The notes under the pieces: generated by a model | Seen by the model: only the letters and a program-made list of their open reading frames with translations | Told to the model about the DNA's origin: nothing | Databases searched by the model: none | NCBI GenBank assembly: GCA_963666565.1 | Contig: OY762911.1 | Coordinates: 4,256,001-4,320,000, forward strand | DNA: 64,000 nt | Source of the DNA: Thermoanaerobaculia bacterium | Lineage (GTDB): Bacteria > Acidobacteriota > Thermoanaerobaculia > Multivoradales > Multivoraceae | Reading direction: 5' to 3' | Shown: one piece after another, positions 1 to 14,881 of the stretch | How positions within the stretch are numbered: the first letter of the stretch is position 1 | Layout: each line of letters begins with the position of its first letter | Program-made: the position numbers and the translations under genes

Positions 1-284
1 TCGGGCTGGCCCACGGCCGCGTCCGCGAGCTGCGGCAGGTTGACGAGGAAGGCGGCGAGAGTCACGTCGTCGTCGTCCCGTTCGAGGATGAAACGGAACT
101 CCTCTCCCTGCGGCCCCGTGCCCGCCCACTCGCCGAGAGTGAAGACGACAAGCTCGACGCCCAGGAGGTCGCCGCGGTTGTCGCAGCCGCCCAGCGACAG
201 AAGCAGAAGCGACGCGGCCAGGAGAACCGCCGGCCGGCGGAGGCGGCGTGCGGGCCGGGTCGGCGGAGAATCGGAAGCGGTCAT
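1..284 (-). CDS. Putative lipoprotein, partial (runs off the left edge)
   Basis: Manual translation from ATG 284: MTASDSPPTRPARRLRRRPAVLLAASLLLLSLGGC-DNRG...; basic N-region, hydrophobic core and lipobox LGGC; open to the window end. Confidence 0.6.
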   Translation of the reverse strand, partial: MTASDSPPTRPARRLRRPAVLLAASLLLLSLGGCDNRGDLLGVELVVFTLGEWAGTGPQGEEFRFILERDDDDVTLAAFLVNLPQLADAAVGQP

Positions 285-306: not shown

Positions 307-1791
307 TCACCCTATCGCAGCGCCCCGCGTCCCCCGCCGCCGCGCCGCCAGCAGGCCGACCGCGAAGATCGTGAGCGTACCGATGACGGTGATCATGTAG
401 CTGTGCAGCGGAATGCGCAGCATCGCGAGGCCGCCGTCGAGCCGCGGCGACAGGGTCATCCAGACGATGACCAGCACGCCCACGGCCACCCCCGCCTGGG
501 CCGCGCCGCGGCCGGCGCGGGGCGCCAGCCGGTCGAGCGCGAACAGGCCGAGCAAGCCGCCGGCGAAGATGCCGGACACCGTCCACCAGACGTCGAGCAG
601 GCTGCCCGCGCCGATCATCAGCAGCGCCGCGCCCGTGCCGAGCACGCCGATGACGACCGTGGACCGCCGCAGCACGCGCAGATCCTCGGCCTCGCCGCCG
701 TCGGCGCCCCGATCGGGCTGGACGTAGGTGCGGTAGATGTCCGACAGGAAGACGGTGGCCGAGCTGTTGAGCGAGGTGTCGATGCTGCTCATGGCGGCCG
801 CGAACAGCGCCGCGATCAGCAACCCCGCGGCGCCGGCCGGCAGCCGGGTCGAGATGTAGTGCGGAAAGGCCTGGTCGGCGGCAAGGCCGGCCGCCTCCGG
901 CTGGCCCTGGAGAACGACGAACAGCCCGGTGCCGACGAAGAAGAACACGGCCGACACCGGCAGGTAGAGGCCGGCCGCCAGCCACACGGAGCGCGACGCG
1001 GCGCGGTCGCCGTTGGCCGCGTGGTAGCGCTGAACGTAGCTCTGGTCGATGCCGAAGTTGTTGAAGTTGATGAACAGGCCGTAGACCAGGACGACCCAGA
1101 AGGTCGAGGTCGTGAAGTCGAGGGAGAAGCTGCCGAGGGAGAACTTCTCCGCCGCCCCGGCCGTCTCGACCAGCCCGCCGAAGCCGCCCGGCGCGTCGAC
1201 GATCAGGAGCCCGACGACGAACAGCGCGCCGACCGTCAGCACGACGCTCTGGATCACGTCGGTCCAGATGACCGCCTCGATGCCGCCGACGAGCGTGTAG
1301 ACGGTGACGACGACGCCCGTGACCAGGACGATCCAGGCCACCGGCCAGCCGGTCAGCGCGTTCATCGCCAGCGCGACGCCGAAGAGGATGGAGCCGACCC
1401 GCGCGAACTGGGTCAGCAGGTAGCAGGCGACGGCGTAGGTCCGCGCCCAGCGGCCGAACCGGGCTTCGAGGTGGTGGTAGGCCGAGACGGCGCCGCCCCG
1501 CCGGTAGAACGGAACCCACCAGCGGGCCGCCAGGAACGCCGCCACAGGCAGGGACAGCGAGAAGACGAAGGCGTTCCAGTTGCCGCCGTACGCCTGTCCG
1601 GGCACGCCGATGAACGTGTTGCTGGAGAGGAACGTGCCGAACATCGACATGCCGACCGCCCAGCCGGGCAGCGCGCCGCCGGCGACCATGAAGCCGCGCG
1701 CCGTCCCGCTCCGTTTGGCCAGCGAGAGGCCGAGGGCGACGACCGCCAGGAGGTAGGCGGCGAAGACGACGAGATCGAGGCCGGCGGTCAC
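307..1791 (-). CDS. Sodium:solute symporter (SSS family, SiaT-like)
   Basis: C-terminal part of ORF 307..2616; GTG 1791 overlaps the upstream stop; motifs GMSMFGTFLSSNTFIG, GGIEAVIWTD, DQSYVQRY, AAAMSSIDTSLNS. Confidence 0.9.
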   Translation of the reverse strand: MTAGLDLVVFAAYLLAVVALGLSLAKRSGTARGFMVAGGALPGWAVGMSMFGTFLSSNTFIGVPGQAYGGNWNAFVFSLSLPVAAFLAARWWVPFYRRGGAVSAYHHLEARFGRWARTYAVACYLLTQFARVGSILFGVALAMNALTGWPVAWIVLVTGVVVTVYTLVGGIEAVIWTDVIQSVVLTVGALFVVGLLIVDAPGGFGGLVETAGAAEKFSLGSFSLDFTTSTFWVVLVYGLFINFNNFGIDQSYVQRYHAANGDRAASRSVWLAAGLYLPVSAVFFFVGTGLFVVLQGQPEAAGLAADQAFPHYISTRLPAGAAGLLIAALFAAAMSSIDTSLNSSATVFLSDIYRTYVQPDRGADGGEAEDLRVLRRSTVVIGVLGTGAALLMIGAGSLLDVWWTVSGIFAGGLLGLFALDRLAPRAGRGAAQAGVAVGVLVIVWMTLSPRLDGGLAMLRIPLHSYMITVIGTLTIFAVGLLAARRRGTRGAAIG

Positions 1792-2942
1792 TCGGTAGGC
1801 AGGACCGGCGCTTCCGCCGGCCATTCTCCGCCGGGCATCGGATATCGCGGCAGTTTCGCCGGATCGAGGACGACGTGCCGGATGCGGGTGCGCCGGTGCG
1901 TGTACGTCACGTGGACCAGTCCGTCGCCGGTCTGGACGACCGCCGGATAGGAGTACTCGCCGTCCTGGTCCTCCAGCATCAGCGAGGCGTCCCAGGCGTC
2001 GCCGTCGTCCGAGAGCGCGACGTTCAGGCGCGACCGGGAGCCGGCCCAGGCGCCGTCGATCCGCACCTTGTGGTTGTAGACGAGGAGGTGCCGGCCGTCG
2101 GCCAGGGTGACGCCGTCGACGCCGGCGTCCGGGTTCGGCAGTCCGGTGGCATGGATCGGCCCCCAGGTGAGGCCGGAGTCGGTGGAGCGGGAAGCGGCCA
2201 CGCGGCTCTGCTTGGACCGGAACAGCGCCAGGAGTTCGCCGTCGCCGAGCGTCAGGATCGTCGGCTGGATGATCCAGAAGTCCTCGCCGTCCGCGGTCGC
2301 GCCGGCCAGCGAGTCGGTGCGGGCCCACGTCCGGCCGAGGTCGGCCGAGCGCTCGAAGTGCGCCCGCCAGGCCGGAGGCTCGGGAGCGTCCTCGATGCTC
2401 GATCCGGCGAGCATCGAACCGTCGGCGAGGGCGATCGGCTTGTTCTTGATCGGTCCCAGGATGCCGTCGGGCAGGCGGCGCGGCTCGCTCCAGGTGCGGC
2501 CGTCGTCGGCCGATTCCATGACCATCCCCCACCACTCCGGCGGACTCGGGCCGACCTTGAAGAAGAGCAACAGCGGCGCGCCGTCCCGCGGCGGCTGGTA
2601 GAGAACCGGGTTCCACGTCGGGTAGCGGGTACCGTCGGCCTGCACGCCGTTGGCGACTTCGACGGGCGAACTCCAGCGGCCGCCTGACGAAGAAACGGCG
2701 CCGGCCGCGGCCGCCCGTTCGCCTTCAAGCCGGCTGAACCAGATGCCGACGTCGGCGTTGCGCTCCGCCGTGCCGCCGAACCAGGCGGCCACCAGCGCGC
2801 CGGAGGCCGTCTCGGCGATCGTCGAGGCGTGGCATTCCGGGTGCGGCGCGGTGTCGAAGACGAACTCGGCGAGCGCCACGCCATCCTGAGCCGTCGCCGG
2901 CAGTCCAGGCAGCACGAACGCGACGGTCGTCGCCGCCGCCAT
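1788..2942 (-). CDS. Secreted sialidase-like (BNR/Asp-box) protein
   Basis: HASTIAET, WNPVL, GPIKNKP; Asp-boxes SADDGRTW, SADLGRTW, STDSGLTW, SDDGDAW; EYSYP. Start is ATG 2942 or CTG 2981. Confidence 0.85.
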   Translation of the reverse strand: MAAATTVAFVLPGLPATAQDGVALAEFVFDTAPHPECHASTIAETASGALVAAWFGGTAERNADVGIWFSRLEGERAAAAGAVSSSGGRWSSPVEVANGVQADGTRYPTWNPVLYQPPRDGAPLLLFFKVGPSPPEWWGMVMESADDGRTWSEPRRLPDGILGPIKNKPIALADGSMLAGSSIEDAPEPPAWRAHFERSADLGRTWARTDSLAGATADGEDFWIIQPTILTLGDGELLALFRSKQSRVAASRSTDSGLTWGPIHATGLPNPDAGVDGVTLADGRHLLVYNHKVRIDGAWAGSRSRLNVALSDDGDAWDASLMLEDQDGEYSYPAVVQTGDGLVHVTYTHRRTRIRHVVLDPAKLPRYPMPGGEWPAEAPVLPTE

Positions 2943-2977
2943 CGATGCGGCGACGACCGAGGTGCGGCTACGACGAG

Positions 2978-3517
2978 TCAGGAGCCTGCCTCCCCGGCTG
3001 CCCCGGCAAGCACGAGTTCCTCCGCCTGCCGCACGATCTGGCCCGCGCGTTCCCGGAGCTCCGCGTCGGTCGCGCTGCTGATCGGATGCTCGATCACCGC
3101 GAACGAATAGCCAGGCGCTCCGCACGCGCGCGCCATCAACTCGGCGCCGTCGACGAACGCCGACGTCATCACGCCCACCGCCGGCACGCCCGCCCGTTCG
3201 AACGCGACCGCGTCGTGCAGACTGCACGACGAGCAGCTCCCTCAGTCGCCGACGCCGGTAACGACCAGCCGGCGCCTCGCCAGCCGCCGCACGAGCTCCT
3301 GCTCGGCCGGCGCGCTGTAGTTCCCCTTCGTCGCGCGCTCCACCGAAGCCGCGCCCCAGCGTTCCCGCAGCAAGGCCTCGACATGGTCGAAGAGCGGCGC
3401 GACGCCCGCCTTCCCGTTCGAGAGCAGGGCGACGTCGATGCCTGCCAGCTCCGCCAGCCGGGGCGCCGGCGAGAGTGGCGCCGGAGAGCCCTCCCAGGAG
3501 GGGTCGAGGACTTGCAC
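2978..3517 (-). CDS. UGSC-family selenoprotein (Sec at in-frame TGA 3242-3244)
   Basis: ORFs 3242..3517 and 2978..3187 share one frame; readthrough gives GVGD-U-GSCSSCSLHDAVAFERAGVPAV; SECIS-like hairpin follows. Confidence 0.88.
3211..3231 (-). promoter_or_regulatory. Bacterial SECIS-like hairpin
   Basis: Minus strand CGTCGTGCAG-T-CTGCACGACG, a perfect inverted repeat starting 10 nt after the UGA; apex GCAGTCTGC resembles the E. coli fdhF SECIS apex GCAGGTCTGC. Confidence 0.8.
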
Positions 3518-3550
3518 GGCTCGGAGTGTAGCCGCGGAATGCCGCCCGGT

Positions 3551-4579
3551 TCAGAACCGGTCCGCTTCCCAGAACGCGAACCGTTCGGGCGGCAGGCGGC
3601 GGGCCAGGAGGTCGCCCTCGTTGGCGACGCCGAGCCGGGAGGCCAGCGCGCCGTCGTCCAGGCTACGGACCATCCACGTCGCGGGAGGCCTCGCGTCCGG
3701 CGGCACCTCGTCCCATGCCGGCTGCGTGTCGATCCTCGTGCCGGTGGCCGCCAGCAGAGCTTCCAGAGGCTCGTCGCGGACCAGGGGCATGCGAATCGAC
3801 TCGACGTTCCGCCCGGTCATGGCGGCGGCCAGCAGGTCGCGCAGGGCAGGAGCGCCGTCGGCCGCCCGGCCCCACTCCAGGACGCGCAGACGTCCGTTGA
3901 AGTCGGCGACGCGCAAGTAGGCGGTTGCGCCGGTCGCGTCCTCCGCAATCCAGACGTCCTCCTCCGGGGTGCCCGCAAGCCGGAGGCTGCCTTGCCAGTC
4001 CGCCGTCGAGCGGCGGTCGACCACGCCGTCCAGCGGCGCGCCGGCGGCGCCGGCGGCGTAGACGCCCCAGAGGCGTCCCAGTTCGCCCTCATCGGCCGCC
4101 GGATCGTAGGGCCGGGCGCCGCCAGCCGGCGACCCCTCAACCCCCGGCCAGTGCAGCGTGCGCCAACCGCGCGACCAGGGCCGATAGCCGTACCGCCCGT
4201 ACCACCGCAGCCGCTCGGCCAGCAAGTAGGAGAGCACCATCCCCCTGTCGCGCATCGCGTCGATCGCCCGCTCGAGCAGCGCGCCCGCCACGCCGCGGCG
4301 CCGGCACTCCGGCCGGGTGAACACGCTGCCGATGCCGCCCATGGGCAGTGCCCGGCCGCCAATCCGCACCCGGCGCGGGAAGATCTGGACGCACGAGACG
4401 AGTTCGCCGCCCCGGTCCGCGACCCAGACGTTCCGCGGCTCGAACGCGGGGTCGAGTTCGACGTACCGCCGGAAGAAGTCCCGACCCCGCTGGCCGTCGG
4501 GAAAGGGCCAGCCGTCCAGGAGGTCGAGCAATGCCTCGATCTCGCTCGCGCGGAGGGTCCGGAGCCGCGTATCCGCCAT
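3551..4579 (-). CDS. GNAT family N-acetyltransferase (Eis-like)
   Basis: MGGIGSVFTRPECRRRGVA acetyl-CoA motif A; WYGRYGY. Confidence 0.8.
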   Translation of the reverse strand: MADTRLRTLRASEIEALLDLLDGWPFPDGQRGRDFFRRYVELDPAFEPRNVWVADRGGELVSCVQIFPRRVRIGGRALPMGGIGSVFTRPECRRRGVAGALLERAIDAMRDRGMVLSYLLAERLRWYGRYGYRPWSRGWRTLHWPGVEGSPAGGARPYDPAADEGELGRLWGVYAAGAAGAPLDGVVDRRSTADWQGSLRLAGTPEEDVWIAEDATGATAYLRVADFNGRLRVLEWGRAADGAPALRDLLAAAMTGRNVESIRMPLVRDEPLEALLAATGTRIDTQPAWDEVPPDARPPATWMVRSLDDGALASRLGVANEGDLLARRLPPERFAFWEADRF

Positions 4580-4679: not shown

Positions 4680-4934
4680 ATGCAGGTGAACATGCACGAA
4701 GCCAAGTCACAACTATCGCGCCTGGGCCGGCTGGCCTGGGAGGGCGAGGAGGTCGTCATCGCCAAGGCGGGAGAGCCGTACCTGCGGCTCGAGCCCTACC
4801 GCGAGGAGAAACTGGAGCCCCGCAAGCTGGGAGGCCTGGAAGGGAAGATCTGGATGGCGCCGGACTTCGACGAGCCCGCGGAAGACCTGTGGGAGTTGAT
4901 GGTGAACTCGAAGATCTTCCCTGACGAGACCTGA
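4680..4934 (+). CDS. Phd/YefM family antitoxin
   Basis: MQVNMHEAKSQLSRL...GEEVVIAKAG; directly upstream of a PIN toxin. Confidence 0.9.
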   Translation: MQVNMHEAKSQLSRLGRLAWEGEEVVIAKAGEPYLRLEPYREEKLEPRKLGGLEGKIWMAPDFDEPAEDLWELMVNSKIFPDET

Positions 4935-4936
4935 CG

Positions 4937-5317
4937 TTGGAGCGCCTTCTGCTCGACACCCACACGTTCCTGTGGTGCTTGTCCAGTCCAGGGAGACTGC
5001 GCGTAGCGGCCCGCAGCGTCATTGAAGATCCGCGCAACCAGATCTTCGTCAGCCCGATCACGGCCTGGGAGATCACGTTCAAGCGCCTCCGGGGGCAGAT
5101 GGACGCTCCCGACAACCTCGCCGCGTTGGTCGACGAGAAGGGCTTCACGCATCTGCCGCTGACGTTCCACCACGCGGAGTTGGCGGCGCGCCTGCCGCAG
5201 CACCACAAGGACCCGTTCGACCGCTTCCTGCTCGCCCAGGCGCAAGCCGAGGGACTCACCGTCGTCACCCGCGACGCGCACTTCCCACTGTACGGGGTGC
5301 GGACCATCCGCGCCTGA
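4937..5317 (+). CDS. vapC: VapC family PIN-domain toxin
   Basis: LLLDTHTFLW, HKDPFDRFLLAQA, VVTRD. Confidence 0.92.
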   Translation: MERLLLDTHTFLWCLSSPGRLRVAARSVIEDPRNQIFVSPITAWEITFKRLRGQMDAPDNLAALVDEKGFTHLPLTFHHAELAARLPQHHKDPFDRFLLAQAQAEGLTVVTRDAHFPLYGVRTIRA

Positions 5318-5454: not shown

Positions 5455-7572
5455 ATGAACCCGCGCGCAGCATCGCTCCTCACCTTCCTTCTCTCGCCGC
5501 TCGCCCTCGCGGCCCAGACCGAACTGCCAATCCGCGTCGAGCCGTTCCTGCAACAGGTCGCGGAGTACGAGCCGCCCGCCGGCGACGCGGCCGCCCCGAC
5601 TCCCGCCGCCCCGGCGCCCCTGCGCAACGTCGACGCTCCCGGCGAAGTTCGCGACGTCGTCACGGATGCCGCCATCCGGATCGCGGTCGCCTCCTCCGCG
5701 GGCCTCTACCTGCGGGACGGTTCCGAGACGACCTGGCGCCGCCTGTTGCCCAGCGACGGCGACCGGAGCTGGGCGCCGGTCGATGTGCGGGCGGTGGAGT
5801 TCGACTACGACGGCAGGCTGTGGTTCGCCTCGCCCCAGGGCCTGGGCGCCCTCGACGAGATCACGGGCGTCTGGCGGCTCTACGACCGTCACGACGGTCT
5901 GCCCTGGAACGACTTCACGGACCTCGCCGCGGCGCCGGACGGCTCGATCTGGGCGGGAACGACGCGCGGGCTCGTCCACCTGATCCCCGGCGCCGCTCCG
6001 GACGATCCGCCCCGCTGGCAGTACCGGCAGGGACGGCGCTGGCTCCCCCACGACCACGTGCTGTCGGTCGAAGTCGCGCGCGACGGAACGGTGCGCGTCG
6101 AGACCCCCGCCGGTTCCGGCGCCATCCGCCTGCAGCCGATGACCCTGCGCGGAAAGGCCGAGCGCTTCCACGAGGCGATCGAGCGCTTCCACCGGCGCAC
6201 GCCCTACGGCTACGTCCTGGGCGTCGCGCTCGAGCGCCCCGGCGACACCTCGGCGTTCCGCCAGCCCGACAGCGACAACGACGGCCTCTGGACCTCCATG
6301 TACGGCGCCGCCGAGTGTCTCCGCTGGGCCGTCACCGGCGAGCCGGAGGCGCGCGAGAACGCCCGCAAGGCGTTCGAGGCGCTGCGTTTCCTGCAGCTCG
6401 TGACCCAGGGCGGCACGCCGCCCGCCGAGCCCGGCTTCGTCGCCCGCACCATCCTGCCGATCGACGGCCCGGACCCGAACGCGGGCCGCCTGGAGAGCGA
6501 CCGCCGGATGCGCGAGGAGCGGGACGGCCTGTGGAAGACGATCGACCCCCGCTGGCCCACAAGCGCCGACGGCAAGTGGTACTGGAAGAGCGACACGAGC
6601 TCGGACGAGCTGGACGGCCACTTCTTCTTCTACGGCCTGTACCACGACCTGGTCGCGGACACCGAGACGGAGCGCGCCGAGGTCCGCGAGACGGTGCTCG
6701 CGATCGTCGACCACCTGATCGACCACGGCGGGGCTCTCGTCGACCATGACGGGCAGCGCACCCGCTGGGCCGTCTTCGGCCCGGAGCAACTGAACCACGA
6801 CCAGGACTGGTGGGAGGAACGGGGCCTCAACTCGCTTTCCTACCTGGCCTACCTGCGGATCGCCCAGCACATGAGCGACCAGCACATGAGCGCCGCCGGG
6901 CCCGAGGCCGGGGCGCGGCGCGGGCAGCGCTACGCCGACGCCGCGCGGCGCCTGCTCGACGACCACGCCTACCTGGCCAACCTGCGCAACCCCAAGGTCC
7001 AGAGCGGCCCCGGCACCGGCAACCAGTCGGACGACGAGATGGCGTTCATGAACTACTACCACCTCCTGAAGTACGAGCGGGACGAGACGGTACGCAGCGT
7101 TGTCGCCCACTCGCTCCGCCAGTACTGGAAGGTCATGCGGCCCGAGCGGAACCCGCTGTTCGATTTCATCCACGCCGCGGCCATCGACGGCGCCGGCTAC
7201 CGCGACGCCTTCGACGACGAGACCTACAGCCGCGCCGACTACCCGCTCCGCGACGCTGTCGAGAGCCTGGTCCTCTATCCCCTCGAACGCTTCGACTGGG
7301 CGCTGTCGAACAGCCACCGCCTCGACATCGTGCTGCTCCGCCACCAGGAAGAACGCCGCGGAATCCGCGGCCACCTGCTGGACGGCCGCGTGCTGCCGAT
7401 CGACGAGCGCTTCGTCAACCACTGGAACCACGATCCCTGGCGGCTCGACCACGGCGGCCAGGGCCGCTACCTCGCCGACGGCGCCAGCTTCCTGCTGCCC
7501 TACTGGTTCGGCCTCCACCACGGGCTGATCGAGGAAGCGGGCGAAGACGATCCGGCGGAGCCGCCGCGTTGA
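5455..7572 (+). CDS. Secreted protein: regulator-propeller-like N-terminus plus probable helical-barrel (six-hairpin glycosidase-like) domain
   Basis: Signal peptide (ALA-AQ); DGLPWNDFTDLAAAPDGSIWAGT propeller repeats; acidic motifs DSDNDGLWT and WKSDTSSDELDGH; fold is inferred. Confidence 0.6.
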   Translation: MNPRAASLLTFLLSPLALAAQTELPIRVEPFLQQVAEYEPPAGDAAAPTPAAPAPLRNVDAPGEVRDVVTDAAIRIAVASSAGLYLRDGSETTWRRLLPSDGDRSWAPVDVRAVEFDYDGRLWFASPQGLGALDEITGVWRLYDRHDGLPWNDFTDLAAAPDGSIWAGTTRGLVHLIPGAAPDDPPRWQYRQGRRWLPHDHVLSVEVARDGTVRVETPAGSGAIRLQPMTLRGKAERFHEAIERFHRRTPYGYVLGVALERPGDTSAFRQPDSDNDGLWTSMYGAAECLRWAVTGEPEARENARKAFEALRFLQLVTQGGTPPAEPGFVARTILPIDGPDPNAGRLESDRRMREERDGLWKTIDPRWPTSADGKWYWKSDTSSDELDGHFFFYGLYHDLVADTETERAEVRETVLAIVDHLIDHGGALVDHDGQRTRWAVFGPEQLNHDQDWWEERGLNSLSYLAYLRIAQHMSDQHMSAAGPEAGARRGQRYADAARRLLDDHAYLANLRNPKVQSGPGTGNQSDDEMAFMNYYHLLKYERDETVRSVVAHSLRQYWKVMRPERNPLFDFIHAAAIDGAGYRDAFDDETYSRADYPLRDAVESLVLYPLERFDWALSNSHRLDIVLLRHQEERRGIRGHLLDGRVLPIDERFVNHWNHDPWRLDHGGQGRYLADGASFLLPYWFGLHHGLIEEAGEDDPAEPPR

Positions 7573-8528
7573 CGAAAGACGCGGCCGGCGCCCCGCGCGT
7601 GGCGCTCCAGCTCTACACGCTCCGCCGGCAGGCCGAGCAGGACCTGGAAGCCGCCCTCGACCGGGCGGCGGAGGCCGGCTATCGCGAAGTCGAGTGGTTC
7701 GGGGGTCTGTGGGGACGCACGGCCGAGGACCTCCGCGGGCTTCTGTCGGAACGCGGCCTCGGGATCCTCGCGGCCCACGTGCCGCTCGCCGACCTGGAGG
7801 CGGATCCCGCCGGAGCGATGGAGACCTGGCGCGCGCTCCACTGCCAGGTGCTCGTCTGCCCGTGGCTCGACGAAGCCCAGCGCGGCGACGGCAGCCGCGC
7901 GCACTACCTGGAACTCGGCCGTCGGCTCGACCTGCTGAGCTACCGGTTCCGGGCCGGCGGCTTCCGCTTCGCCTACCACAACCACGACTTCGAGTTGCTG
8001 CCGTTCCACGACGTTCAACCCGCAAGCGGACCGTCTTCGACCGGGGAGCGACGACGCCGGGCGGAATGCACGGCCGCTCGAACGCAGCGCGACTTCCGCC
8101 ACGGGCCGCCAGGCCGCGACGGCCTGCGAGCGCTCGTCTCCCGCCGCTCTCACGACGGCTGGGGACTGGAACTGGACATCTACTGGGCGGCCTTCGCCGG
8201 CGCCGACCCGGAGGCGCTGATCCGGGAACTCGGGGACCGGGTCCATCTCCTGCACCTGAAGGACGGCCTGCTGCCCGGTCCGCCGGAGGAACGCGCGGCG
8301 GAGCGGGCCACGTCCGAGCGCTGGTTCCGGCCACTGGGCAACGGCGACGTCGACGTGGCCGCCTGCGTCGACGCGGCGCTCGAGACCGGCGTGCGCCTGT
8401 TCGTCGTCGAGCAGGACGAGACGGCGGAAGCCGGCGGAGCGGCCGAGCGGGACTCGGCCGCGAGCCTCGGATACCTCAAGACGCGGACGGCTCTTGGCGC
8501 CGCCGCGGGCAAGGCTTCCGCGCCATGA
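7569..8528 (+). CDS. Sugar phosphate isomerase/epimerase (xylose-isomerase-like TIM barrel)
   Basis: TTG 7569 overlaps the upstream TGA; ALQLYTLR, YHNHDFE, ELDIYW, LHLKD, VEQD. Confidence 0.85.
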   Translation: MTKDAAGAPRVALQLYTLRRQAEQDLEAALDRAAEAGYREVEWFGGLWGRTAEDLRGLLSERGLGILAAHVPLADLEADPAGAMETWRALHCQVLVCPWLDEAQRGDGSRAHYLELGRRLDLLSYRFRAGGFRFAYHNHDFELLPFHDVQPASGPSSTGERRRRAECTAARTQRDFRHGPPGRDGLRALVSRRSHDGWGLELDIYWAAFAGADPEALIRELGDRVHLLHLKDGLLPGPPEERAAERATSERWFRPLGNGDVDVAACVDAALETGVRLFVVEQDETAEAGGAAERDSAASLGYLKTRTALGAAAGKASAP

Positions 8529-8595
8529 GCCGGGGCCTGTCCAGGCTCGACGCGGCGACCGCGATCGGTACGGCAGCGGCGGGGAACCACGCGCC

Positions 8596-10179
8596 ATGAC
8601 CTGGGGCCTCTCCGGGCTCGATACCGCGATCGTCCTCGTCTACCTGGCGGGGATACTGGTCATCGGCACCACTTTCAGCCGCTACGTCAAGACCAGTGGC
8701 GACTTCCTGCTCGCCGGCCGCGCCCTGCCCTTCTGGGCGATCGGCATGTCGATCGTGGTCAGCGACATCGGCGCCACGGACTTCATCGCCGTCGCCGGCG
8801 GTACCTACCGCTACGGCCTCGCCCAGGCCAACTTCGACTGGCTCGGCTCGATGCCGGCGCTGCTGATCGCTGCGTTCCTGATCGTCCCGTTCTACTGGCG
8901 CAGCGGCGTCTACACGGTTCCCGAGTTCCTGGGCCGGCGCTACGGCAGCGGCGTGCGCAGCTTCCTCGCTCTGGCCTGGGGCGTCATCCTGGTGCTCAAC
9001 CTCGGGATCATGATCCACGCCACCGCGCTGCTCATGCGCACCGTGCTCGGCTGGGATCCGCAGTTCTCCATCTGGATCACGACCGCGATCGTCGGCATCT
9101 ACACGATCAGCGGCGGGCTGGCCGCGGTCGTGATGACCGACGTGCTGCAACTCATCGTCATGTTCGTGGGCGGCGCGGCCCTGGTCGCGCGGGCCCTCTA
9201 CGAGGTCGGCGGACTGACGGCGCTGCGCGACGGCGTCCTCAACCAGGGCGCCCAGTACGCGGACCACTTCTCGCTCTACCTGCCGCACGACACGGCGACT
9301 CCCTTCCCCTGGACCGGGATCGTTCTGGGGCTCGGGATCGTGCTCTCGGTCGCCTACTACACCGGCAACCAGACGATCGTCCAGCGCGCGCTCGGCGCGC
9401 GCAGCGAGTGGGACGCGAAGGCCGGCGTGCTGCTCGCCGGCTTCCTGAAGCTGTTCATCCCGCTGCTCGTCGCGCTGCCGGGGCTGGCCGCGATCCTGAT
9501 CGTCCCGGACCTGCAGAACGCCGACGAGGCGGTGCCGAGCCTCATCGCCCGGTTGCTGCCGCCGGGATTGCGGGGACTGATGTTCGCTGCCTTCCTGGCG
9601 GCCCTGATGTCGAGCGTCGACTCCAACCTGAACTCGGCGACGACTCTCTGGAGCCGCGACCTGCTCGGCCGCCTGCGACGGCGCCTGGGCCGCGCGGAAC
9701 TCGGGACCGCCGCGGAACTCCGCTTCGGCCGCATCCTGTCCGCCGTGCTGCTGCTGGCGGCCGCGTTCATCGCGCCCGAGATCGAGCAGCGCTTCAGCAA
9801 CATCTACAACGCGATCCAGACCGTCTTCTCCCTGATCCAGGGGCCGACCCTGGCCGTGCTCCTGCTCGGCATCCTCTGGCGCGGAGCGAACCGCTACGGC
9901 GGCGCCGCCGGGCTGGTGTCGGGCGTCGGGTTCTGCCTGCTGCTCAACAGCCCGGCGATGGATGGGCTGTTCTCGTCCGAGGAGCCGTTCCTGTTCGTCG
10001 CCTGGTGGTCGTTCGTCTTCACCCTGGGCGTGACCTGGATCGTCAGCCGGTTGACGCCGCCGGAGCCGCCGGAGCGCCTGCGCGGCCTGGTCTGGGGCGA
10101 GGTGCGGAACGACGGAGCGGTGCAGGCGGCGCTGCGAAGCCGGGTCGCCCAACTGCGGGAGAACGGCAATGAACCGTGA
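8596..10179 (+). CDS. Sodium:solute symporter (SSS family)
   Basis: ATG 8596; DFLLAGRALPFW, TVPEFLGRRY, GGLAAVVMTD, NQTIVQR, AALMSSVDSNLNS. Confidence 0.92.
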   Translation: MTWGLSGLDTAIVLVYLAGILVIGTTFSRYVKTSGDFLLAGRALPFWAIGMSIVVSDIGATDFIAVAGGTYRYGLAQANFDWLGSMPALLIAAFLIVPFYWRSGVYTVPEFLGRRYGSGVRSFLALAWGVILVLNLGIMIHATALLMRTVLGWDPQFSIWITTAIVGIYTISGGLAAVVMTDVLQLIVMFVGGAALVARALYEVGGLTALRDGVLNQGAQYADHFSLYLPHDTATPFPWTGIVLGLGIVLSVAYYTGNQTIVQRALGARSEWDAKAGVLLAGFLKLFIPLLVALPGLAAILIVPDLQNADEAVPSLIARLLPPGLRGLMFAAFLAALMSSVDSNLNSATTLWSRDLLGRLRRRLGRAELGTAAELRFGRILSAVLLLAAAFIAPEIEQRFSNIYNAIQTVFSLIQGPTLAVLLLGILWRGANRYGGAAGLVSGVGFCLLLNSPAMDGLFSSEEPFLFVAWWSFVFTLGVTWIVSRLTPPEPPERLRGLVWGEVRNDGAVQAALRSRVAQLRENGNEP

Positions 10180-14283: not shown

Positions 14284-14400
14284 CCGACGCACGGCCTGAG
14301 ACGCGGTGGCGCGGAACGCGCCAGCCGGGTAACGCAGCCGTGCGCCGGATGACCGACGCACGGCCTGAGACGCGGTGGCGCGGAACACGCCAGCCGGGTA
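14266..14400 (+). repeat. 69-bp tandem repeat (2 copies)
   Basis: cagccgtgcgccggatgaccgacgcacggcctgagacgcggtggcgcggaac(g/a)cgccagccgggta twice. Confidence 0.9.
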
Positions 14401-14404
14401 GCCA

Positions 14405-14881
14405 GTGACCGACGAAGTCCGGATCGAACCCGGCGACCCCGCCGACCCCGCCTTCGTGCGCCTGCACGAGGCGCTCGACCGGGAACTCGGCGAGCTCTAC
14501 CCCGCCGACAGCATCTACAGCGTCGAGCCCGACAAGCTCGACGCCCCCGGCTGCTGCCTCCTCCTCGGCCGGAACGCGGACGGCGAAGCGGTCGCCTGCG
14601 GCGCACTCCGCCAACTCGGCCCCGATCAGGCCGAGATCAAGCGGATGTACGTGGCGCCGGAGTACCGTCGGCAGGCCCTCGGACGCCGCATCCTGGAGGA
14701 ACTCGAAGCCCGAGCGGCGGCCTTCGGCTACAAGTCGCTGCGGCTCGAAACCGGCGAACTCCAGCCCGCCGCGATCGGCCTTTACCGTTCCTTCGGTTAC
14801 GTCCGGATCCCCTGCTACAACGAGTACGCCTACGACCCGCACAGCCTCTGCTTCGAGAAGAAGCTGGAAGCCGGCGGCTAG
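14405..14881 (+). CDS. GNAT family N-acetyltransferase
   Basis: AEIKRMYVAPEYRRQALG, LRLETGELQPAAIGLY. Confidence 0.9.
   Translation: MTDEVRIEPGDPADPAFVRLHEALDRELGELYPADSIYSVEPDKLDAPGCCLLLGRNADGEAVACGALRQLGPDQAEIKRMYVAPEYRRQALGRRILEELEARAAAFGYKSLRLETGELQPAAIGLYRSFGYVRIPCYNEYAYDPHSLCFEKKLEAGG

Follow-up and report, generated by a model that had tools for sequence, protein, structure and literature searches.

A UGSC-family selenoprotein gene that heads a BNR-SSS gene run and probably pairs with a partner encoded at a distant locus

Introduction

Proteins carrying a U-G-S-C motif make up a selenoprotein family that ranks among the most abundant in microbes, the GOS survey having yielded 255 sequences (PMC2398784); PMC1976440, PMC9312934 and PMC13188914 describe them as selenoproteins of unknown function. 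A UGSC/Unknown_1 fusion was reported in PMC2398784 (Fig. S1A); in the entries of Dataset S1 of that paper, the domain fused to UGSC bears the motifs of a family of unnamed ~350-residue proteins that we refer to as the partner, and our equation of Unknown_1 with the partner family rests on these shared motifs. The other selenoproteins relevant here are GrdB and PrdB (PF07355): according to the sections of PMC13188914 that treat them, GrdB acts by binding glycine and releasing ammonia, PrdB by cleaving the proline ring.

Here we describe UGSC-A, a member of this family in a Thermoanaerobaculia bacterium of the Multivoraceae (genome G000). Two proteins of this genome fall into clusters with members labelled Acidobacteriota. 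The window is the whole stretch of 64,000 nucleotides analysed (assembly GCA_963666565.1, contig OY762911.1, positions 4,256,001 to 4,320,000); coordinates without a genome prefix refer to it. UGSC-A shares with the described family (PF24696 and NF041046; the 'UGSC-containing protein' of Zhang & Gladyshev as outlined in PMC1976440 and PMC2398784) the full-length match, the UGSC motif, the Sec/Cys pairs and the downstream SECIS. Unlike other members, it is neither adjacent nor fused to a partner gene and is probably leaderless, and it heads a run of a sialidase-like (BNR) gene and a sodium:solute symporter (SSS) gene, a combination confined to this genus among the loci examined. In the portions of the UGSC literature that we covered, we found no report of a split pair or of a BNR-SSS context; the neighbourhood survey of Haft & Tolstoy (2025) lies outside that scope and may discuss UGSC contexts. 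The original prediction, made from the window alone, survived as to the UGSC selenoprotein, its SECIS, the Sec machinery, the probable leaderless start and the gene overlaps. Its proposed functional tie between the selenoprotein and the BNR-SSS module found no support.

UGSC-A and its selenocysteine codon

The whole feature lies on the minus strand, which the original prediction had not specified; a plus-strand reading of the same interval gave no meaningful protein and was rejected. UGSC-A (2978..3517) starts at GTG 3517-3515 and its final stop is TGA 2980-2978. As had been claimed, two short ORFs in the same frame are split only by TGA 3244-3242 (codon 92; 3242..3244, minus strand), and reading this TGA as Sec gives a 179-residue protein with the motif G-V-G-D-U-G-S-C-S-S-C, in which the Sec segment is U92-G-S-C95-S-S-C98. 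The readthrough protein belongs to the UGSC family: it scores 171.6 bits against PF24696 (cut-off 25) versus 58 and 91.6 for the two halves, and 128 bits against NF041046, a narrow margin over the cut-off of 125 that neither half reaches (29.3 and 77.2).

The U/C-G-S-C motif is present in UGSC-A, and C-G-S-C is invariant across our 82-row UGSC alignment. A check for Cys at the U position found it in 90 of 103 database homologues; two have another residue, and the column is absent from 11, of which 10 end at the preceding Asp. Relatives keep the TGA itself, with exactly one in 49 of the 50 PF24696 matches from 41 related genomes, the remaining match being a 38-position contig-end fragment. The genome has tRNA-Sec (selC), selA, selB and selD, all above cut-off (the selD score being summed over pieces in one frame). 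Compared with UGSC-A over 20 orthologous loci, dN/dS by crude counting is ~0.13 on either side of the TGA, which indicates purifying selection on both halves. Taken from sequence, UGSC-A is almost certainly a Sec-coding gene; it is real, yet an unremarkable representative of a known family without known function. If the TGA were instead a true stop or a sequencing error, leaving a pseudogene or two small genes, one would expect products truncated at the Asp, as gene callers indeed list for the 10 homologues mentioned; the shared TGA, the Cys homologues, the Sec machinery and the selection on both halves leave this explanation with almost no probability. Four contig runs from one study, of unrecorded kind, have no alternative letter or gap at the TGA; their listed contigs break near 3209-3258, and none reaches 31 letters past the codon in both directions, so we give them no weight.

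The hairpin said to begin 10 nt after the TGA is there (3211..3231, minus strand), with a perfect 9-bp stem and a 3-nt loop at 3231-3211 and an energy of -13.3 kcal/mol when folded alone. It can be described as an 8-9 bp stem with a 3-5 nt loop, G at loop position 1-2 and a spacing of 18-19 nt from the UGA, and it falls within all four constraints set out for bacterial SECIS elements in the relevant part of PMC13188914 (a 4-16 bp stem with a 3-9 nt loop; G in the first two loop positions; spacing of 16-37 nt; energy <= -7.5 kcal/mol). The folding energy of the region is nothing unusual against shuffles (z -0.09, -1.28 and +0.48) in DNA that is 70% GC, and an Rfam search at E<=10 gave no SECIS family for it. 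Codon choice at the apex is a stronger SECIS sign than folding energy. Of 49 distinct UGSC genes of the Sec type, 43 have the rare Ser codon AGT there, as against 6 of 191 Ser codons in seven genes of the window. All eight stem pairs are kept in 29 of the 49 Sec-type genes and in 0 of 75 Cys-type genes, the latter mostly from one clade with a different peptide at the hairpin site; random synonymous recoding keeps eight stem pairs in 579 of 20,000 trials. Both sets contain many relatives, so these stem and codon counts are not independent. C98 occurs in only 5 of the 103 homologues and may therefore be imposed by the SECIS, though with it UGSC-A has the complete UxxCxxC of the GrdB type.

The SelD of this genome (G000:C1:4554128-4555060, L016) is a Cys-type (CxxC) domain that ends an 847-codon open frame and is thus probably a fusion, like the Ndh-SelD fusions noted in PMC2398784. 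Three genomes (G255, G323 and G332; L209-L211) have 11 PF24696 matches each, mostly ~600-codon frames with one TGA and with U-S-S-C instead of U-G-S-C, which look like an expanded family of apparent UGSC-partner fusions. In L205 (G226), a UGSC gene has another in-frame TGA 13 codons past the Sec codon, either a nonsense change or a second Sec.

A probably leaderless operon

A -10-type box of the form TANNNT (TACACT, 3525..3530, minus strand) stands at 3530-3525, 7 nt before the GTG as originally predicted. It is kept in orthologues: the 29 orthologous loci compared all have TANNNT 6-8 nt upstream of an ATG or GTG and no SD-like word, and the DNA further upstream varies. TANNNT close upstream of the start is given as a signature of leaderless genes, Acidobacteria included, in the part of PMC3160421 that covers them. 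Given this spacing, the transcript is probably leaderless or near-leaderless, as had been proposed. No two-box promoter came out of a scan for sigma-70 sites. Across the genome, in-frame ATGs show a strong peak of TANNNT at upstream distances of 6-9 nt (73, 39, 28 and 55 ORFs, versus 1-9 at most other offsets), and this excess suggests that leaderless genes are common in the organism.

The UGSC-A stop abuts the next gene by overlapping its in-frame CTG. That gene encodes a BNR_2 sialidase-like beta-propeller (1788..2981, minus strand; start CTG 2981 or ATG 2942; PF13088, 275.6 bits), whose stop overlaps the start of the SSS gene in GTGA at 1791-1788; both junctions are as the original prediction had them. 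The SSS protein has 494 residues (307..1791, minus strand; PF00474, 146 bits; TIGR00813 above cut-off). Next in the run is the 5′ part of a gene for a 182-residue putative lipoprotein (1..284, minus strand), which continues outside the window; the lipoprotein call was made by eye and the protein matched no Pfam family, and this gene is conserved downstream of SSS in loci L049, L050 and L270-L274. SSS comes after UGSC-A in 21 of 21 orthologous loci and BNR does so in 19; in all 21, the UGSC stop shares bases with an NTG in the frame that follows (17 GTG, 1 ATG and 3 CTG). The constant SSS order and NTG overlap argue for an operon that has been stable since the genus arose, and we infer that BNR and SSS are co-transcribed with UGSC-A.

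Upstream and co-oriented lies a GNAT/Eis-like acetyltransferase gene (3551..4579, minus strand; PF13527), which is found within 1.5 kb of UGSC-A, at differing distances, in 13 of the 21 orthologous loci and is probably a separate unit. Between this gene and the next cluster, the plus strand carries a Phd/YefM-like antitoxin and a PIN-domain gene (vapBC-type, 4680-5317). The cluster itself (5455-10179, plus strand) is a second, divergent SSS cluster encoding a 705-residue protein with only a short propeller match, a xylose-isomerase-like TIM barrel and an SSS transporter. At ~14290-14410, between acyl-CoA ligase and GNAT genes, overlapping frames share a duplicated stretch of ~20 residues, which implies a short direct repeat. 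Just outside the window there is a 2,993-codon ORF (G000:C1:4244069-4253050, plus strand; L015) with many ~110-residue Thr-rich repeats and an autotransporter-like end.

A partner gene at a distant locus

Outside the genus, UGSC is usually found beside the partner. For 397 Cys loci collected with a Cys-only pattern, mostly from Actinomycetota, the partner is adjacent to UGSC in 78 of the best 80; among the 10 nearest Sec loci of the outgroup, 9 have it upstream of UGSC and the other lacks upstream DNA, and it is near UGSC in most phylum-level loci. No Pfam family matched it. Around the 80 actinobacterial Cys loci, which are largely from one clade, the other neighbours include Zn alcohol dehydrogenases (60), amidohydrolases (42), SDR proteins (38), MetE-like proteins (20) and aldehyde dehydrogenases (19); they suggest small-organic catabolism without naming a substrate.

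As in the UGSC/Unknown_1 two-gene unit, the genome of the window encodes a cognate partner (partner A, 359 residues) with conserved GWTDGLP and AGC motifs, but everywhere in the genus the two A genes lie at least 49 kb and up to megabases apart. No adjacent or fused partner gene was found at the UGSC-A locus, and the nearest cognate is 239 kb away, at G000:C1:4498476-4499555 (plus strand; L061:8477-9556). Partner A has a conserved Cys90 and a C-terminal CxxC, and is 66% identical to outgroup partners versus 40-42% for the second partner of the genome, partner B. In trees built separately for UGSC and the partner from 40 pairs, the UGSC-A and partner A of the genus are each sister to the adjacent pairs of the outgroup (94/98; 100 in a quick tree). 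Across the genus, the partner A gene sits between a serine hydrolase and a methyltransferase gene and has a conserved TAGGCT box ~15 nt before its ATG.

The second pair consists of Sec-UGSC-B and a Trx-fused partner B, arranged head to head (divergent) at G000:C1:2172101-2174120 (L014). UGSC-B is SD-led and is followed by a gene for a metallo-beta-lactamase fold and a xanthine/CO-dehydrogenase-type cluster. In L044 (G004:C34), a third, divergent UGSC copy lies directly downstream of a partner gene; it groups with a gene from another family (G054), so that transfer or contamination is possible.

The 42 genomes of the genus provide natural experiments on the split pair. Both UGSC-A and partner A were matched in 37 of them, in a screen that partly used only the N-terminal half and left the TGA uninspected in 11 of the genomes so screened. 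The two genes are unlinked in all 37; in the 19 genomes that have both on one contig, the distance between them ranges from 49 kb to 4.1 Mb. In G017, each gene is represented by a fragment at a contig end. Two genomes, each on one contig, have lost the partner. In G337 (98% complete), partner A is absent and UGSC-A has decayed: codons ~76-159 are gone, together with Sec and SECIS, conserved residues have changed, and the remnant forms an in-frame fusion with an intact BNR; the promoter box and SSS are kept. In G021, partner A is cleanly deleted between its usual flanking genes, and UGSC-A and BNR are missing, with SSS kept. An rpoB tree shows these losses to be independent events; selA and Sec-UGSC-B are still present in G337 as well as in G021. 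The reverse case is seen in G002 and G012, where BNR was deleted, independently in each, and UGSC-A and partner A were kept. Two drafts, G001 (210 contigs) and G024 (10 contigs), keep partner A but yielded no UGSC-A, BNR or SSS orthologue. They speak against a strict two-way tie; a near-identical relative of G001, G346, has UGSC-A, so the absence in G001 may be an assembly gap, an account that does not cover G024.

Loss of the partner was thus twice accompanied by loss or decay of UGSC-A, and most genomes keep both genes, a pattern that supports a functional pair. The two co-loss events indicate that UGSC-A follows its distant partner rather than its neighbours, and judging from these comparisons we think it probable that UGSC-A works with partner A in trans.

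Predicted fold and relation to GrdB and PrdB

The model of UGSC (pLDDT 91.6) shows an alpha/beta domain of Rossmann/flavodoxin-like type, in which U92 sits between a strand (84-90) and a helix (93-108). Its best fold-search rows were generic (8s7v_H, Z 11.7, rmsd 4.7, 139 aligned), with no thioredoxin-fold chain among the rows listed. PDB sequence searches with UGSC, the UGSC alignment, the partner alignment and a PrdB-like protein returned nothing significant, and they found no GrdB/PrdB-like chain, so the UGSC fold searches cannot bear on a shared fold. The partner model (pLDDT 89.1) had no structural match at Z>=8, and its Foldseek TM-scores were <=0.29; Cys90 is kept in 70 of 71 partner rows. 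The ESM Atlas offered only unnamed clusters, plus one with UGSC on 16% of its members.

For 67 diverse UGSC rows against GrdB/PrdB, hhalign gave 84.9% (P 6e-6), over ~100 columns with Sec in register; a first attempt with a narrower UGSC profile reached only 33.6%. The GrdB/PrdB set came from the 23 of 30 PF07355 loci with a UxxC readthrough (21 after dereplication); each row was trimmed to the surroundings of its own Sec, and the likeness had been proposed before it was tested. Against a full GrdB-type protein the value was 93.2%, and 51% with the motif masked. As controls, 21 families gave at most 8.2%, and the best score of 30 column shuffles was 20.6 versus 43. A stand-alone PrdB-like selenoprotein of the same genome, which served as a GrdB/PrdB reference, lies beside msrB at G000:C1:3876856-3877749 (minus strand; L186) and has U-P-V-C and a C-terminal CxxC.

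GrdB/PrdB and UGSC both have a UxxC(xxC) where a strand passes into a helix, with E-x-x-G-x-P after it and an H/F-P motif further on; the GrdB motif UxxCxxC, as quoted in PMC13188914, matches UGSC-A. Unlike GrdB and PrdB, UGSC is half the size and has no PF07355 match: PF07355 (GRDB) was not among the Pfam families listed for UGSC at E<=10, and a PF07355 search of its own genome found only another gene. No GrdA, GrdC, GrdE or PrdA was found alongside UGSC in the loci examined (as distinct from whole genomes), and the partner is an unrelated, unnamed family. These comparisons support a remote homology of the UGSC Sec domain to GrdB/PrdB, outside PF07355 itself. We hold GrdB-like chemistry for UGSC and its partner as a tentative analogy, somewhat short of an even chance.

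The BNR and SSS neighbours and alternative roles for UGSC-A

The BNR protein resembles GH33 sialidases and the BNR_2 propellers that occur with SSS transporters in its BNR_2 fold, in its SSS neighbour and in the conserved Arg255, Arg316 and Tyr345; two Arg and the Tyr are found in 21 of 21 homologues. Its matches to GH33 structures are weak (best E 2.8e-5). Unlike GH33 enzymes, it lacks the R-I-P motif and has H-A-S there (by eye), and in the weak alignment its Gln239 takes the place of the sialidase Glu; 'sialidase-like' therefore refers to the fold only. An apparent signal peptide, recognised by eye, would place the protein in a different compartment from UGSC; BNR and SSS proteins have one Cys each.

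Had UGSC-A been recruited into a glycan-uptake pathway, processing an imported sugar acid by redox chemistry or maintaining the BNR and SSS proteins, the conserved UGSC-BNR-SSS order (19 of 21 orthologous loci, SSS in all 21), the overlapping stop and start codons and the joint lack of the three genes in G001 and G024 would all be understandable. That joint absence is, however, what a single block deletion or an assembly gap would also produce, and the original prediction of a functional tie is unsupported wherever the genes come apart. UGSC-A is intact where BNR was deleted (G002 and G012), and SSS is intact where UGSC-A is broken (G337, which retains BNR and SSS beside a Sec-less remnant) or absent (G021, which retains SSS alone). 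Neighbourhood conservation outside the genus points the same way: UGSC is within 1.5 kb of 0 of 21 BNR homologues, SSS is near 2 of the 21, and within the flanking DNA retrieved for the 80 Cys-UGSC loci (5 kb at most) neither BNR nor SSS occurs. With the signal peptide and the single cysteines added, recruitment appears quite improbable. The fate of UGSC-A follows its distant partner and not the sugar-uptake genes, so the BNR-SSS neighbourhood looks incidental, and BNR and SSS are probably unrelated to UGSC-A in function. Similar considerations bear on UGSC-A as a stand-alone thiol/selenol oxidoreductase with no need of a partner. Its UxxC motif, its transcription apart from any partner and the 'likely Trx-like fold' suggested in PMC2398784 would suit such a role, but the model is a Rossmann/flavodoxin-like domain, the partner is adjacent in nearly all of the Cys loci counted above and UGSC-A decays where the partner is lost; we rate it as low as recruitment.

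UGSC-A might also serve, besides or instead of an enzymatic function, as a selenium-gated leader. Lacking Sec-tRNA, ribosomes would stop at codon 92, 264 nt before the coupled BNR start, and BNR-SSS expression would fall. A single leaderless promoter fits this mechanism, as do the NTGA overlap kept in 21 of 21 loci, even after the BNR deletion in G002, and the promoter and in-frame fusion retained in G337. Yet NTGA overlaps are common in bacterial operons, the overlap uses a weak CTG in 3 of 21 loci, and in G000 a downstream ATG is available. SSS in G337 and G021 runs without any Sec gate, and the low dN/dS in both halves together with co-loss with the partner point to selection on the protein. 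A meaningful selenium gating of BNR-SSS is thus unlikely, though less so than recruitment or a stand-alone role; the combined reading, in which readthrough on a leaderless mRNA gates the coupling of a periplasmic glycosidase-like gene and a symporter and UGSC-A is in addition the in-trans Sec subunit of an undescribed GrdB-like bond-cleaving enzyme with the distant partner, sits at the lower end of the same range.

Discussion

The explanation that we favour, and consider likely, is that UGSC-A is the Sec subunit of a split redox enzyme made up of UGSC and its partner and assembled in trans, with BNR and SSS as passengers. UGSC-A would be a cytoplasmic selenoprotein, made from a leaderless mRNA by SelB- and SECIS-dependent UGA recoding, a step strongly supported by sequence. 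An ancestral two-gene unit of UGSC and partner would have been split by rearrangement at the root of the genus, leaving partner A at a locus of its own and presumably acting with UGSC-A in trans. By analogy with the Sec domain of GrdB and PrdB, U92 at the helix N-terminus may attack a small substrate held by the partner, and C95 (perhaps C98), with cysteines of the partner or a thioredoxin, might then resolve the adduct. The BNR-SSS-lipoprotein genes would be an older, independent uptake unit that later came under the UGSC promoter, and passengers that lie outside the enzyme's pathway. The long stability of the operon within the genus counts against this account.

If selenium gating did hold, selenium supply would switch a nutrient-uptake operon, and a selenoprotein gene would have been co-opted as a selenium-sensing leader. 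For the favoured split enzyme, the locus cautions against reading the function of UGSC-A from its immediate operon. Adjacency alone cannot show that UGSC needs its usual neighbour, and the unlinked genes of this genus provide a natural test. What this genus adds is evidence that UGSC and the partner stay functionally tied when unlinked, which names two genes to co-express. Such evidence about the partner matters because UGSC proteins are abundant yet without known function.
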